From positions 1-31,320 of IMG/VR virus record IMGVR_UViG_2734482786_000007: a stretch of DNA of 31,320 bases. The stretch is one strand, 5' to 3'. The stretch comes from a virus (lineage: Duplodnaviria; Heunggongvirae; Uroviricota; Caudoviricetes). Below the pieces are notes generated by a model that saw only the letters and a program-made list of their open reading frames with translations, was not told the origin of the DNA and did no database searches. Position numbers and translations under genes: made by a program. This document shows, piece after piece, positions 3,355 through 10,209 of the stretch; positions within the stretch are counted from its first letter, which is position 1; the number at the start of each line of letters is the position of its first letter.

Positions 3355-3626
3355 GTATTCGTATCGAAATTGGCGAACGTTATGTCGTTACCAGTGACAG
3401 CTTTCAGTTTATTCTCCACGAGAAAAAGAGAGCGGAAAGCGGTAAAAACGCCGGTCATGAATGGCTGGCGGTGGTTGGTTATTACCCGAAATTAAGCCAG
3501 CTCGTTTCCGGCCTGATGCATCACGATATTCTGACCGGAAGCGCAAAATCTTTTGCTGATTTAAACGCGCAGGTTGAGCAACTCAGCAAGCGTTGTTCAG
3601 AGGCTTTTGGCTCATATGGCCGTTAA
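3351..3626 (+). CDS. Hypothetical early protein (91 aa), P2 orf83 position
   Basis: ATG 3351 overlapping the upstream stop (ATGA); GGAG Shine-Dalgarno; immediately precedes and overlaps gene A. Confidence 0.6.
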   Translation: MSIRIEIGERYVVTSDSFQFILHEKKRAESGKNAGHEWLAVVGYYPKLSQLVSGLMHHDILTGSAKSFADLNAQVEQLSKRCSEAFGSYGR

Positions 3627-5889
3627 AGCCTCCGGGCGTTTTGTCCCTCCGTCAGCATTTGCCGCAGGCACCGGTAAGACGTTTACCGGTGCTTATGCAT
3701 GGAACGCGCCACGCGAGGCCGTCGGGCGCGAAAGACCCCTTACACGTGACGAGATGCGTCAGGTGCAAGGTGTTTTATCCACGATTAACCGCCTGCCTTA
3801 CTTTTTGCGTTCGCTGTTTACTTCACGCTATGACTACATCCGGCGCAATAAAAGCCCGGTGCACGGGTTTTATTTCCTCACATCCACTTTTCAGCGTCGT
3901 TTATGGCCGCGCATTGAGCGTGTGAATCAGCGCCATGAAATGAACACCGACGCGTCGTTGCTGTTTCTGGCAGAGCGTGACCACTATGCGCGCCTGTCGG
4001 GAATGAATGACAAGGAGCTGAAAAAGTTTGCCGCCCGTATCTCATCGCAGCTTTTCATGATGTATGAGGAACTCAGCGATGCCTGGGTGGATGCGCATGG
4101 CGAAAAAGAATCACTGTTTACGGATGAGGCTCAGGCTCACCTGTATGGTCATGTTGCTGGCGCTGCACGTGCTTTCAATATTTCCCCTCTCTACTGGAAA
4201 AAATACCGTAAAGGACAGATGACCACGAGGCAGGCATATTCTGCCATTGCCCGTCTGTTTAACGATGAGTGGTGGATTAGTCAGCTTAAAGGCCAGCGTA
4301 TGCGCTGGCATGAGGCGTTACTGATTGCTGTCGGGGAGGTGAATAAAGACCGTTCTCCTTATGCCAGTAAACATGCCATTCGTGATGTGTGTGCGCGCCG
4401 CCAGGCAAATCTGGAATTTCTTAAATCGTGTGACCTTGAAAACAGGGAAACCGGCGAGCGCATCGACCTTATCAGTAAGGTGATGGGCAGTATTTCTAAT
4501 CCAGAAATTCGCCGGATGGAGCTGATGAACACCATTGCCGGTATTGAGCGTTACGCCGCAGCAGAGGGTGATGTGGGGATGTTTATCACGCTGACCGCGC
4601 CGTCAAAGTATCACCCGACACGTCAGGTAGGAAAAGGCGAAAGTAAAACCGTGCAGCTTAATCACGGCTGGAACGATGAGGCATTTAATCCAAAGGATGC
4701 GCAGCGTTATCTCTGCCGTATCTGGAGCCTGATGCGCACGGCATTCAAGGATAATGATTTACAGGTCTACGGTTTGCGTGTCGTCGAGCCACACCACGAC
4801 GGAACGCCGCACTGGCATATGATGCTTTTTTGTAATTCACGCCAGCGTAACCAGATTATCGAAATCATGCGTCGCTATGCGCTCAAAGAGGATGGCGACG
4901 AAAGAGGAGCCGCGCGAAACCGTTTTCAGGCAAAACACCTTAACCGGGGCGGTGCTGCGGGATATATCGCGAAATACATTTCAAAAAACATCGACGGCTA
5001 TGCACTGGATGGTCAGCTCGATAACGACACCGGCAGGCCGCTGAAAGACACTGCAGCGGCTGTTACCGCATGGGCGTCAACGTGGCGCATCCCGCAATTT
5101 AAAACGGTTGGCCTGCCGACAATGGGGGCTTACCGTGAACTACGCAAATTGCCGCGCGGCGTCAGCATTGCTGATGAGTTTGACGAGCGCGTCGAGGCTG
5201 CACGCGCCGCCGCAGACAGTGGTGATTTTGCGTTGTATATCAGCGCGCAGGGTGGGGCAAATGTCCCGCGCGATTGTCAGACTGTCAGAGTCGCCCGTAG
5301 CCCGTCGGATGAAGTTAACGAGTACGAGGAAGAAGTCGAGAGAGTGGTCGGCATTTACGCGCCGCATCTCGGCGCGCGTCATATTCATATCACCAGAACG
5401 ACGGACTGGCGCATTGTGCCGAAAATTCCGGTCGTTGAGCCTTTGACTTTAAAAAGCGGCATCGCCGCGCCTCGGAGTCCTGTCAATAACTGTGGAAAGC
5501 TCACCGGTGGTGATACTTCGTTACCGGCTCCCACACCTTCTGAGCACGCCGCAGCAGTGCTTAATCTGGTTGATGACGGTGTTATCGAATGGAATGACCC
5601 GGAGGTCGTGAGGGCGCTCAGAAGCGCATTAAAACACGGCCTGAGAAGACCAAACCGTCAGCAAAGAAACGGAAGCCCGTTAAAACCGCATGAAATAGCG
5701 CCATCGGCCAGACTTACCCGGTCGGAACGAATGCAAATTACCCGTATCCGCGTTGACCTTGCTCAGAACGGTATCAGGCCGCAGCGATGGGAGCTTGAGG
5801 CGCTGGCGCGTGGGGCAACCGTAAATTATGACGGGAAAAAATTCACGTATCCGATTGCTGAAGAGTGGTCGGGATTTTCCTCAAACTAA
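3616..5889 (+). CDS. A: Rolling-circle replication initiation endonuclease (P2 GpA-like), 757 aa from the ATG at 3616
   Basis: Large protein with the HUH-type metal-binding motif (PHWHMMLF) and an active-site tyrosine region (GYIAKYISKNIDGY) characteristic of P2 A; the N-terminus MAVKASGRFVPP matches my memory of P2 A. The ORF track start at 3574 would overlap the previous gene by 53 nt, so the internal ATG is preferred. Confidence 0.9.
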   Translation: MAVKASGRFVPPSAFAAGTGKTFTGAYAWNAPREAVGRERPLTRDEMRQVQGVLSTINRLPYFLRSLFTSRYDYIRRNKSPVHGFYFLTSTFQRRLWPRIERVNQRHEMNTDASLLFLAERDHYARLSGMNDKELKKFAARISSQLFMMYEELSDAWVDAHGEKESLFTDEAQAHLYGHVAGAARAFNISPLYWKKYRKGQMTTRQAYSAIARLFNDEWWISQLKGQRMRWHEALLIAVGEVNKDRSPYASKHAIRDVCARRQANLEFLKSCDLENRETGERIDLISKVMGSISNPEIRRMELMNTIAGIERYAAAEGDVGMFITLTAPSKYHPTRQVGKGESKTVQLNHGWNDEAFNPKDAQRYLCRIWSLMRTAFKDNDLQVYGLRVVEPHHDGTPHWHMMLFCNSRQRNQIIEIMRRYALKEDGDERGAARNRFQAKHLNRGGAAGYIAKYISKNIDGYALDGQLDNDTGRPLKDTAAAVTAWASTWRIPQFKTVGLPTMGAYRELRKLPRGVSIADEFDERVEAARAAADSGDFALYISAQGGANVPRDCQTVRVARSPSDEVNEYEEEVERVVGIYAPHLGARHIHITRTTDWRIVPKIPVVEPLTLKSGIAAPRSPVNNCGKLTGGDTSLPAPTPSEHAAAVLNLVDDGVIEWNDPEVVRALRSALKHGLRRPNRQQRNGSPLKPHEIAPSARLTRSERMQITRIRVDLAQNGIRPQRWELEALARGATVNYDGKKFTYPIAEEWSGFSSN

Positions 5890-6060
5890 TAATGATGTTT
5901 GACAAAGAGATGTTGATGAGACTAAAAATTTTATTTGTCTGTATAACCATTCGGTTAGAGTACAATAGTTCCGAGTGATAGGAATACAAATAATGACTAA
6001 GTTTTCAACATGCGATTGTTATGGGTTGAATTAAAGGTAAATAACTATGTTAAATAATAT

Positions 6061-6094
6061 AGGGCAAGAGGGTGTTCTTGCCCTTTGTTTATTT
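6061..6094. terminator. Bidirectional intrinsic terminator between gene A and the convergent cargo gene
   Basis: Perfect 8-bp stem AGGGCAAG/CTTGCCCT (6061..6068 and 6077..6084) with an 8-nt loop, followed by TTGTTTATTT on the plus strand and preceded by an A/T run that supplies a U-tract for the minus-strand transcript. Confidence 0.6.
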
Positions 6095-8687
6095 AAGCGG
6101 CGATTTCAATGTTGCTTTTATATTTTAAGAGGGCGTTTTTGGGAACTGCTGGCCAGGCTGAGTATCTATAATAGTTCATATAATCTTTCTCTATCAGTGT
6201 TTTTAGCTGTTTGTTAGCTTGAACTTCATCACCAAGTAAAAAGAATGCACACATGGCCGTAGCCCCTTTTGAATTGTTATGTGCTAAAACTGAATTTATC
6301 TCATTCTTTTTAATGTCTTGCCCTTCTTTTTTCTTGGCAACTTCTCTATTGATTATTAAAACATCTTTTTCCCTGTAATCTTTAATTTTTTCAAGGTTTT
6401 CATTAGCGATTTTAATTGTTTCTTTATAGTTTCCTGCAAGAAGATTGGTATAAGATTTTCCTAAGATATAATCACTAAACCCGTAACCTTTTTCATAAGC
6501 TTCATCAAGAAGAACTATCGCTTTATCATAATCGCCGTTTAAAGATGCAATATCAGATTTTAATTTTAAAATGGTGATTTCTGATTTGTTTCTTGGCAGG
6601 CCATCAATAAACTCCTCTGCCAATTTGATGTTGTTTTTATCAATTAGTAATATGTCTACAATACTGTTTGTATGATTATTTTTCCACGGGCAGTTCATGG
6701 CTTCTTTGACTAATTCAATACCAGCCTTGATGTCCCTGTTGCAGCCTATCTCATATCGAGCTTTAAATATAATGAAAGGAGCAATTCTTGCAATGTCGCT
6801 CTCTTCTTCATATTTATCAATAAAGCCTTTCATCAGGTTGGGAGTGTTTTCATCGAAGTCTGTTTCAAATAAAGATAGATGCAGTTGTGTTAAATATTTT
6901 AATATGTTTCTTTTTTTATTTTTTGATGATGTTTTGTAAGCGTTGGATAATGTATCTATGCATAATAATGTATCTTCTTTCTTTTGCAATGCGCAGGTGA
7001 AATCAGTATATAACGACAAATATGTATCGTGAGTAGGGTTGACCTCTTTTATTTTGTCAAGCAGTTCTTGTATTAATTTATTACAATCTTTCTTATCATG
7101 GCTTGATTGATGTTTTGTCTTTATTGCGTCATATTTTATTCTCCATGCAATATTATCCAGATCACTGCTTTGGAGTAAGCTTTTATCAATTAAATCATGT
7201 ATTTCATCAAAGGTTATTAATTCTTCATCATTATTTTCTAGATGTAGAATAGCAATTCTGCTTAAATGATTCTTAAGATTTATGCTATATGGGAATTTTT
7301 CAAGCAATCCCTTAAGGTAATGTATTTTTGCCTTTAGATCTGTGAATATGTTTGCCCTTGAAAGGGCGTAATTTATATTAAATTCATCAAGAGCTATAAG
7401 ATTATCACTAATTTCTAATGCTGACTTTGTGTCTTTTTGTTCTTCTTTTATTTCAATTAGCCTACGCAGATATTTAGACTTTATATTGTCACTATCAGCG
7501 TTATTGATTAATTCATTCAGTTTTGACTCTGCGTTTAAATAATTTTTATTTCTAATGAGGTTGTCAATGTATAACAAATTCTTAAAATCTTCTTCGGGGA
7601 TCTTTTGATCGTCTAAATCACTTTGGGATAGCTCGTTTATTAATGACGATATGTCATGTGTTAGAGTGTGTTTTTTTAATTTTGAGAGATCAGATTTGAT
7701 AATGCCATTTTTAGATAAGTTGTACTCATCTGTTATAAAGTTTTGGATCATCATCTCTCTTTTTGTGGATTTTTGATTCCCTCCAAAAGAGAGTGCGCAG
7801 CCTAATTCTAGGGCTAGTTCTGCCATCAATTCATCAAAACCTTCTATTTCTACCCAATAAACTTTATCTTGACCTAGAAGCCTAATAAGTTCTGGTGGGA
7901 TGGAGTCATTTTTTCTAACGCACCAGTATACTCCATTTCTTAGATAATCGTCCTGTTTTAATAAATGTTTTAAAACATCCATGATAGAGCTGTCATTGCC
8001 AGCATAACCAACAAAAATAATCCCGTATTCTTTAGTGAATTCAGTTAGTTTTTCACGAGTGTTACCTTCTAATGACTCGGTTTCTTTTAAAGAGCTTTTT
8101 ATGCTATCAAATAAATAATCACCATGTAATTTTATTATTTTTGGCCTTGAAGAAGTAATTGAGACGCCTTTAATTGATGAATCATGTGCACATAATAATG
8201 GTCTGTCAGAAGAAAATTGATAAAATGCTTCATTTATTAAATCGTCAAAATTTGTTGTGAAGACAGTATCAAAAAACTTTGATTCAAATAGTTCAACGAG
8301 ATAAGCATATCCAATTGAAGGTAATTTTTTGTCTACTTGAAGCTCAACAAATCTTCTGCGTTGAGATGGAAGATCAAATTTCTTTTCAAAAAGAGATGAG
8401 TATTCATTGTTTGGGTCGTACCAGACTGGATGGTTTTTGGATAGCCATTTTTTAGCTTCTTCGGCATCGACATATTCTTGATTGGATAGTCTTGTGTATA
8501 TCTCTTCTCTCCATTTCGCTACTAACTCTTGACCAGTTTTTATTCCAGATGTAACGGATGCGCCAGCACCAAGAAAAAGTGAATAGTTAGGTGATGTACC
8601 TGATTTGATTTTTATATAATCAGCTAAATCTTTAACGGTTCTTTTTTTGGCAACCAGTTGTTCCTTGGTAGTATCACGATCAGACAT
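6093..8687 (-). CDS. SIR2-like (DHS-like NAD-binding) domain protein with a long C-terminal helical/TPR-like domain, 864 aa; candidate single-gene anti-phage defence protein
   Basis: N-terminal about 300 aa carry the SIR2_2-type signature: glycine-rich loop FLGAGAS (G40-S44), TTNFDD (N146), KLHGDY (H188), FVGYAGND. The C-terminal about 560 aa are Lys/Asn/Asp/Glu-rich helical repeats (e.g. GDYDKAIVLLDEAYEKG). Strongly AT-rich against the flanking phage genes; own GGAGGG Shine-Dalgarno; sits where P2 carries tin/old. Confidence 0.8.
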   Translation of the reverse strand: MSDRDTTKEQLVAKKRTVKDLADYIKIKSGTSPNYSLFLGAGASVTSGIKTGQELVAKWREEIYTRLSNQEYVDAEEAKKWLSKNHPVWYDPNNEYSSLFEKKFDLPSQRRRFVELQVDKKLPSIGYAYLVELFESKFFDTVFTTNFDDLINEAFYQFSSDRPLLCAHDSSIKGVSITSSRPKIIKLHGDYLFDSIKSSLKETESLEGNTREKLTEFTKEYGIIFVGYAGNDSSIMDVLKHLLKQDDYLRNGVYWCVRKNDSIPPELIRLLGQDKVYWVEIEGFDELMAELALELGCALSFGGNQKSTKREMMIQNFITDEYNLSKNGIIKSDLSKLKKHTLTHDISSLINELSQSDLDDQKIPEEDFKNLLYIDNLIRNKNYLNAESKLNELINNADSDNIKSKYLRRLIEIKEEQKDTKSALEISDNLIALDEFNINYALSRANIFTDLKAKIHYLKGLLEKFPYSINLKNHLSRIAILHLENNDEELITFDEIHDLIDKSLLQSSDLDNIAWRIKYDAIKTKHQSSHDKKDCNKLIQELLDKIKEVNPTHDTYLSLYTDFTCALQKKEDTLLCIDTLSNAYKTSSKNKKRNILKYLTQLHLSLFETDFDENTPNLMKGFIDKYEEESDIARIAPFIIFKARYEIGCNRDIKAGIELVKEAMNCPWKNNHTNSIVDILLIDKNNIKLAEEFIDGLPRNKSEITILKLKSDIASLNGDYDKAIVLLDEAYEKGYGFSDYILGKSYTNLLAGNYKETIKIANENLEKIKDYREKDVLIINREVAKKKEGQDIKKNEINSVLAHNNSKGATAMCAFFLLGDEVQANKQLKTLIEKDYMNYYRYSAWPAVPKNALLKYKSNIEIAA

Positions 8688-8998
8688 TTTCCCTCCATAA
8701 ATTATGTGTGAGAAGTGAGAATAATCCTAGGTGTGGTTATTTTTACATGAAATTCAATGGGTTTTCGTTTTTCTTACATGCGTTTTGTGACTGAGATCAA
8801 GCTATGAGGGAGGAATGTTCTTTTATTGTTCGCTAGAGGCTAATTGGCTAATAAGCTTTTACTAATCGTTTATGATGTACCATAGCGTTGAATGATTTTG
8901 CATGCATTTGTCAGATGTTTACTGATGTTGTTATGTCAGAGCTGGTGCGCTTTAGGTTATTTCATGCAACTGCATTAAAACCACCACATGAAGCGGGC

Positions 8999-9017
8999 GG
9001 GCGAGGCGGGGAAAGCA
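8999..9017. other. cos site (19-nt cohesive-end sequence of P2-type phages)
   Basis: Exact match to the sequence I remember as the P2 cohesive end, GGCGAGGCGGGGAAAGCAC, lying about 160 bp from the 3' end of portal gene Q in a GC-rich non-coding stretch, where cos is expected. Confidence 0.6.
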
Positions 9018-9174
9018 CTGCGCGCTGGCGGTGGTGATGATTTTATTTTTTCAGCGTCTGAGCGCGTCGTGATGGCGTTTAGATTGTGCGCCGGGGCGTT
9101 GGTGTGTCTGCGGGGTGTTTTGTGCGGTGGTGAGCATGTGAGGGTGTAAAAAAGCCGCCCGCAGGCGGCGATGT

Positions 9175-10209
9175 TCAGCCGTTGTCAGTGTCCAGTGAGT
9201 AGTTTTTAAAGCGGATGACCTCCTGACCGAGCCAGCCGTTTATCTCGCGGATCCTGTCCTGTAACGGGATAAGCTCATTGCGGACAAAGACCTTTGCCAC
9301 TTTCTCAATATCACCCAGCGACCCGACGTTCTCCGGCTTGCCGCCCATCAACTGAAAGGGGATGCGGTGCGCGTCCAGCAGGTCAGCGGCGCTGGCTTTT
9401 TTGATATTAAAAAAATCGTCCTTCGTCGCCACTTCACTGAGGGGGATAATTTTAATGCCGTCGGCTTTCCCCTGCGGGGCATAGAGAAACAGATTTTTAA
9501 AGTTATTGCGGCCTTTCGACTTCACCATGTTTTCGCGAAGCATTTCGATATCGTTGCGATCCTGCACGGCATCGGTGACGTACATGATGTATCCGGCATG
9601 TGCGCCGTTTTCGTAATACTTGCGGCGGAACAGCGTGGCCGACTCATTCAGCCAGGCAGAGTTAAGGGCGCTGAGATATTCCGGCAGGCCGTACAGCTCC
9701 TGATTAATATCCGGCTCCAGCAGGTGAAACACGGAGCCGGGCGTGAAAGGTGTCGGCTCGTTGAAGGACGGCACCCACCAGTAAACATCCTCCTCCACCC
9801 CACGGCGGGTATATTTTGCCGGTGAGGTTTCCAGTCTGATGACCTTACCGGTAGTGCTGTAACGCTTTTCCAGAAACGCATTACCGAACACCAGAAAATC
9901 CAGCACAAAGCGGCTGAAATCCTGCTGAGAAAGCCACGGATGCGGGATAAATGTCGAGGCCAGAATATTGCGTTTGACGTAAATTGGTGAGCTGTGATGC
10001 ACGGCAGCACGCAGGCTTTTTGCCAGACCAGTAAAGCTGACCGGTGGCTCATACCATCTGCCGTTACTGATGCACTCGACGTAATCCAGAATGTCACGGC
10101 GGTCGAGTACCGGCACTGGCTCACCAAAGGTGAATGCCTCCATTTTCGGGGCGCTGGCGGTCATTTTTTTTGCCGCAGGTTGCTGTGTTTTCCCTTTTTT
10201 CTTGCTCAT
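9175..10209 (-). CDS. Q: Portal protein (P2 GpQ-like), 344 aa
   Basis: Length identical to P2 Q; first gene after cos, on the minus strand, start overlapping the stop of P; Lys-rich N-terminus. Confidence 0.9.
   Translation of the reverse strand: MSKKKGKTQQPAAKKMTASAPKMEAFTFGEPVPVLDRRDILDYVECISNGRWYEPPVSFTGLAKSLRAAVHHSSPIYVKRNILASTFIPHPWLSQQDFSRFVLDFLVFGNAFLEKRYSTTGKVIRLETSPAKYTRRGVEEDVYWWVPSFNEPTPFTPGSVFHLLEPDINQELYGLPEYLSALNSAWLNESATLFRRKYYENGAHAGYIMYVTDAVQDRNDIEMLRENMVKSKGRNNFKNLFLYAPQGKADGIKIIPLSEVATKDDFFNIKKASAADLLDAHRIPFQLMGGKPENVGSLGDIEKVAKVFVRNELIPLQDRIREINGWLGQEVIRFKNYSLDTDNG

Follow-up and report, generated by a model that had tools for sequence, protein, structure and literature searches.

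A SIR2-TPR cargo gene in the P2 hotspot: a candidate single-protein abortive-infection NADase of prophages

Between the replication gene and the cohesive-end site of a P2-like phage genome lies a solitary gene for an 864-residue protein with sirtuin motifs. What does the phage gain by carrying it? The window, meaning the whole stretch of viral DNA that was analysed, is 31,320 nucleotides long (positions 1 to 31,320 of IMG/VR record IMGVR_UViG_2734482786_000007). The original prediction took the gene for an anti-phage system in one protein, in which a long helical region senses the phage and a SIR2 domain depletes NAD+.

An AT-rich cargo gene beside cos

The gene, called SIR2-TPR here, was found on the minus strand with its predicted length and an ATG start (Table 1). 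At the gene's own base composition the probability of 864 stop-free codons is ~3e-32. It converges, as proposed, with P2 gene A, the Phage_GPA gene on the opposite strand. Its AT-richness amid balanced flanks was likewise confirmed by measurement: GC is 0.32 and GC3 0.27 in the gene, and GC is 0.53 both in gene A and in the remaining window. The surrounding island holds no second gene and includes a 5' region and a terminator belonging to this one, and in P2 and P2-like phages with other cargo the homology ends at the end of gene A and restarts near position 8930.

Table 1. Coordinates of the SIR2-TPR locus in the window.
Feature	Position	Strand	Remarks
P2 gene A (replication endonuclease), left flank	3616..5889	+	Pfam Phage_GPA, E 2e-121; RefSeq CDS limits carried over from L001
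AT-rich cargo island, ~3.0 kb	5890..8930	.	GC 0.32 vs 0.53 elsewhere in window
Terminator hairpin AGGGCAAGA-loop-TCTTGCCCT	6061..6084	.	9-10 bp GC-rich stem; terminator-like call on both strands
SIR2-TPR CDS (864 aa)	6093..8687	-	ATG start; stop codon 6093-6095
TPR-like alpha-solenoid, aa ~365-857, presumed sensor	6117..7595	-	~29 helices / ~14 hairpins, period ~34-36 aa
Linker, aa ~296-364	7596..7802	-	AlphaFold2: two helices, with low confidence at aa 345-360
SIR2_2 (SIRim-type) Rossmann domain, aa ~30-295	7803..8600	-	Cofactor loop G40-A41-G42-x-S44, N146 (TTNFDD), H188 (KLHGDY)
Post-His loop, aa 186-210, KLHGDYLFDSIKSSLKETESLEGNT	8058..8132	-	Near-invariant in family; low modelling confidence
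Cargo gene 5' region	8688..8930	-	RBS GGAGGG at 8691-8696, 3 nt before ATG
Presumed P2 cos cohesive-end sequence GGCGAGGCGGGGAAAGCAC	9000..9018	+	Single exact match, zero expected by chance
Portal gene Q, right flank	9175..10209	-	Pfam Phage_portal

The sequence at 9000-9018, which we take to be the P2 cos, forms the right border of the hotspot and is unchanged across alleles. Beyond it, the portal gene Q has a terminator hairpin of its own (9154-9169, terminator scan). The gpA-cos-gpQ locus is where P2 carries old and tin, and the placement of the gene between gene A and cos/Q agrees with the claim that it occupies a documented P2 defence hotspot (Rousset et al. 2022, PMC9122126). The same flanks are common to 2174 E. 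coli genomes, only 19 of which carry the SIR2-TPR cargo; other P2-like phages have Fic, DUF3850 or DUF4209 cargo in this A-Q slot.

This type of cargo is already catalogued, and only its function and sensor are uncharacterised. RefSeq names the gene 'SIR2 family protein' and has it with identical flanks in the 19 complete E. coli genomes, and the protein is a full-length match to phrog_14359. In the part of Rousset et al. 2022 (PMC9122126) that was covered, Table S5A lists the allele WP_124831363 as 'SIR2_2' of the P2 hotspot, and of the two closest alleles neither accession appears in the tables. In that same part, the sole 'SIR2' entry of Table S2 (systems evaluated) belongs to the P4 hotspot, and the validated P2 systems are others than the SIR2-TPR cargo. 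A literature search, with incomplete journal coverage, found no functional study of the family.

The cargo gene brings its own signals. The hairpin at its 3' end, which has gene A on its far side, folds at -17.5 kcal/mol (z = -6.6) and is kept in 5/5 diverged E. coli alleles, in which the remaining spacer is not. It lies 9 nt past the SIR2-TPR stop codon as against 172 nt past that of gene A, and these distances, together with a weak minus-strand U-tract (AUAUUAUUUA), indicate that it serves mainly as the cargo gene's own terminator. Of the bidirectional terminator originally proposed, the hairpin itself stood, whereas two-way termination is no more than plausible. Upstream of the gene, several blocks of the 5' region are kept even in a 78%-identical allele; a consensus scan of the minus strand gave no convincing sigma-70-like promoter there. 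Candidates for a further component of the island were rejected: the spacer from gene A to the terminator, where a small partner gene or RNA might lie, is unconserved between alleles, and the small ORFs that overlap the SIR2-TPR gene are antisense and unconserved. Rfam gave zero matches in the window.

The SIR2 domain and the repeat arm

Profile, sequence and two structure searches agree on an N-terminal SIR2_2 fold. Pfam SIR2_2 (PF13289) matches aa 141-261 with 56.4 bits against a gathering cut-off of 24.5, the PADLOC profile Aga_SIR2-PNTD1-PNTD2 matches the domain at E 2e-59, and GsSir2 of SPARSA (PDB 8jkz) is retrieved at E 1e-23 by single-sequence and E 1e-28 by profile search; the best Foldseek matches are SPARSA SIR2 chains. 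The search for the fold proposed with the original prediction (Pfam, PADLOC, PDB and Foldseek) thus came out positive, and the fold is a Rossmann-type SIR2 resembling solved immune sirtuins. The type of sirtuin had to be revised. The domain had been assigned to the group of DSR1, DSR2, ThsA and SIR2-HerA; by sequence it is nearest to the Argonaute-associated SIR2-APAZ proteins, and the profiles of the other types gave no match at E<=1.

The four motifs are at the residues predicted for them: FLGAGAS at 38-44, TTNFDD at 144-149 (with N146), KLHGDY at 186-191 (with H188) and FVGYAGND at 225-232. N146, H188 and the cofactor loop are invariant among 38 homologues and align with N142, H186 and G25-A37 of GsSir2, where N142 and H186 are experimentally essential. 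The domain is probably a NADase. The loop that follows the catalytic histidine combines strong conservation (D190, Y191, L192, D194, I196, S198, L200, E202, T203, S205, L206, E207 and N209 are invariant) with a pLDDT of just 45-55, under 50 for aa 194-204. It aligns with the 'catalytic loop' of SPARSA, which bears H186 and is repositioned on tetramerisation.

The C-terminal ~560 residues had been predicted to be helical, and the AlphaFold2 model is indeed all-alpha from aa 308 onward, the ~29 helices in aa 365-857 having a pLDDT >90. Modelled as a separate domain (aa 330-864, pTM 0.84), the arm finds no more than generic TPR/HAT superhelices in structure searches. Among its fold matches, the best are TPR scaffolds that bind proteins, the peptide sensors Rap and PlcR among them. 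Profile, sequence and structure searches of the arm against known defence sensors gave no match, in keeping with the earlier remark that the C-terminal domain resembled no described system.

An exhaustive phmmer search of 1.84 billion representatives, with aa 300-864 as the query, returned 125 matches, essentially all of them SIR2-TPR proteins of 860-880 aa. Where a match of odd length retains a recognisable N-terminal domain, it is a truncated SIR2 protein, and no match carries another Pfam effector domain. The arm is thus seen with this SIR2 only, and effector swapping on it was rejected. Exchange on the other side of the linker does occur: a sister prophage family joins the same SIR2 subtype to an unrelated, shorter C-terminus. 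One SIR2 subtype with different C-termini is a modularity of effector and sensor that is typical of defence proteins. Identity within the SIR2-TPR family is 71% in the SIR2 half and 40% in the TPR half.

A proposed function and its alternatives

The best explanation of the locus, to which a probability of roughly 0.6 can be given, is an uncharacterised one-protein abortive-infection NADase of the prophage, DSR2-like in plan, with a new sensor and a familiar principle. The facts behind it are the intact, invariant SIR2 catalytic residues, the TPR solenoid, the lack of a partner, APAZ domain or NTPase, the P2 hotspot, purifying selection and the joining of a conserved effector half to a fast-evolving repeat half. 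The single-gene organisation recurs elsewhere: gene A, SIR2-TPR, cos and Q stand in this arrangement in the 19 complete E. coli genomes, in Raoultella and in 12 IMG/VR P2-like contigs, some of which have a gpA just 35% identical to the one here, and the gene is solitary in four non-prophage contexts as well. The system would be self-contained, expressed as a single gene from the prophage, and its protein would be inactive at rest. The C-terminal TPR superhelix would bind a protein made by the infecting phage, and this binding would change the SIR2 domains in conformation or in assembly state. The most likely route, by analogy with the SIR2 of SPARSA, would be that SIR2 domains oligomerise and thereby give order to the conserved loop with H188. 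Anti-phage function, NADase chemistry, a protein trigger sensed by the TPR arm and activation by oligomerisation are what we infer. Autoinhibition and oligomerisation are drawn purely from analogy, because the full-length model (pTM 0.58) places the two domains unreliably with respect to each other. Also counting against this explanation are the use of TPR domains elsewhere purely as scaffolds and the lack of a signal of positive selection in the TPR half, described below.

A bolder version of this reading is tentative and stands at somewhat less than even odds. It makes the protein the founding member of a sirtuin class in which an Argonaute-type SIR2 NADase has been rewired to an NTPase-free TPR sensor, with a novel phage-protein trigger and SPARSA-like tetramerisation. 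To our knowledge, the Argonaute-type SIR2 NADase has so far been met nowhere but in the nucleic-acid-guided SPARSA systems, where it is the effector. If the bolder version is true then, together with the 640-aa sister family, it would show the SPARSA effector to be a free-standing module traded between nucleic-acid and protein sensors.

The chemistry might be of another kind. The SIR2 domain could be a protein-modifying enzyme, an ADP-ribosyltransferase or deacylase, for which the TPR arm recruits a phage or host substrate, the effect coming from the modified target and not from bulk loss of NAD+. We consider this alternative unlikely.

An equally improbable alternative is that the cargo has no role in defence. 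It could be a lysogenic conversion gene that tunes the NAD metabolism or stress physiology of the host, or an addiction or maintenance toxin that stabilises the prophage. The hotspot does house such passengers, with partition systems in ~1/4 of P2-like phages and a cytolethal distending toxin in ~2% (PMC9122126). The chromosomal homologues also favour this alternative. In Shewanella, Aeromonas, Cedecea and Pseudoalteromonas the gene stands alone amid housekeeping genes, and no obvious defence island was found in these four non-prophage contexts, so the guilt-by-association evidence comes from the P2 hotspot alone. Against a role outside defence, the SIR2_2/SIRim clade is strongly tied to immunity and its gene neighbourhoods are 12-fold enriched in defence systems; the pairing of a conserved effector with a varying repeat arm, and the exchange of C-termini, are typical of sensors; the locus has no antitoxin-like partner; and the patchy, horizontally transferred spread in prophage moron slots fits defence.

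Less likely still is an effector whose sensor is encoded elsewhere, either a short Argonaute on the chromosome or a ThsA-style signal enzyme, with the TPR arm as a mere docking or oligomerisation module. The SIR2 domain is of the Argonaute-associated subtype, and the PADLOC SIR2-APAZ and pAgo-fusion profiles align to aa 350-380, slightly past the SIR2 core. These matches are nevertheless limited to the first 280-365 positions of profiles 524-1030 long, so that APAZ is missing, and SLOG and Macro domains are absent as well. No conserved partner gene, pAgo or other, was present in the >25 contexts inspected, nor was there a recurrent neighbour in the other viral contigs with the gene; the single-gene organisation originally claimed is upheld in this respect. 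Moreover, a prophage moron would fail after transfer if it needed a host gene that most hosts lack. A hidden APAZ/pAgo or STAND module was also considered and rejected, there being no Walker A motif, APAZ match or neighbouring Argonaute.

The gene is under purifying selection. Among alleles dN/dS is 0.04-0.16 in both halves, with dS up to >1.5, and all 864 codons stay in frame, free of indels, in alleles with as little as 77% protein identity. By the Nei-Gojobori method omega does not exceed ~0.2 in any 72-codon window, the TPR half included, and positive selection gives no signal at this resolution. That the gene is a silent or decaying passenger without current function is very improbable: a promoter is not confidently assigned upstream and a frameshift splits L027, one of the IMG/VR copies, yet the frame is conserved as described, the signals around the gene (RBS, upstream blocks, terminator) are kept, and full-length members of the family occur in many genera.

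If the gene protects against phage, the combination of SIR2 and TPR arm, with neither NTPase nor Argonaute, would be a third defence-associated sirtuin architecture and would connect the effector of SPARSA with single-chain systems that sense proteins. The gain would be incremental, because the P2 hotspot, sensing by repeat arms and NAD+ depletion by SIR2 are all known already and loci of this type have been catalogued. Being compact (2.6 kb and one gene, or 3 kb with native signals), resident in E. coli and easily tested, the system would make a convenient model for asking how a repeat arm activates a SIR2 NADase and which phage protein is detected.

Comparison with known systems

PADLOC v2 profile matches were judged at E<=1 and PDB profile matches at E<=10. 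Under these thresholds membership in DSR1, DSR2, ThsA, SIR2-HerA and Avs5 was rejected at the level of sequence, and an NCBIfam search with the protein gave no match. PADLOC v2 would not call a system: of its Argonaute-associated and PDC-S65 models the protein matches just the SIR2 portion.

The nearest SIR2 by every sequence method is that of the SPARSA SIR2-APAZ proteins (GsSir2/Ago of Geobacter sulfurreducens; PDB 8jkz, 8in8, 8y80), and the cofactor loop, the catalytic N and H and the post-His loop are common to both. The difference lies in the rest of the protein, where a TPR solenoid takes the place of APAZ (PNTD) and no Argonaute gene is at hand, related loci likewise showing no large ORF next to the gene; the SIR2-APAZ profile matches stop at profile positions 281-365, corresponding to protein aa 293-381. 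With neither an APAZ domain nor an Argonaute gene, guide-RNA/target-DNA sensing cannot apply. For PDC-S65, a PADLOC candidate, aa 34-343 match positions 32-341 of 592 at E 7e-26, which is again the SIR2 part alone and scores far under the Aga_SIR2 profiles.

In overall plan, the protein resembles DSR2 of Bacillus subtilis, a one-gene system in a single chain with an N-terminal SIR2, a helical linker or middle part and a long alpha-solenoid arm. In DSR2 the solenoid senses the phage tail tube protein, the SIR2 tetramer core is activated and NAD+ is depleted. Whole DSR2 chains align with the full-length model in Foldseek (E ~5e-8, TM 0.2). A DSR2-like sensor finds no support here: these matches reflect a collinear SIR2 and helices, and the separately modelled arm finds generic TPR/HAT folds only. 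The SIR2-TPR protein also differs in matching neither the DSR2 profile (PADLOC, E<=1) nor a DSR2 PDB chain (E<=10), and it is set apart from DSR1 by the lack of a PADLOC Dsr1 match at E<=1.

Other immune sirtuins are more distant in architecture. Thoeris ThsA differs by its SLOG/Macro domain and ThsB/TIR partner, for which, as for the ThsA profile, SIR2-TPR has no counterpart. Avs5 (SIR2-STAND) and the STAND/NLR proteins with TPR sensors differ in that SIR2-TPR has no Walker A motif, no STAND/Avs profile match and a linker of just ~70 aa. SIR2-HerA (Nezha) differs as well, since SIR2-TPR is the sole gene in its island, with no adjacent HerA and no SIR2-HerA profile match.

A related case is the sister family phrog_23427 (630-668 aa), represented by the 'SIR2-like domain' protein of the Vibrio 186-like prophage PQ189330 and also uncharacterised. 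Its SIR2 domain is 44-52% identical (hhalign probability 100%), and like SIR2-TPR it stands as a single gene in accessory slots of prophages, its N-terminal half conserved and its C-terminal half variable. No homology between its C-terminus of ~350 aa and the TPR arm is detectable (hhalign probability 66% over 117 columns).

The proteins of P2 old and tin are unrelated to SIR2-TPR. Old is an ATPase-nuclease and Tin targets the ssDNA-binding protein of T-even phages. What these genes and other hotspot cargo share with SIR2-TPR is the slot beside cos, the AT-rich character of a moron that brings regulatory signals of its own, and a presumed part in the exclusion of other phages.

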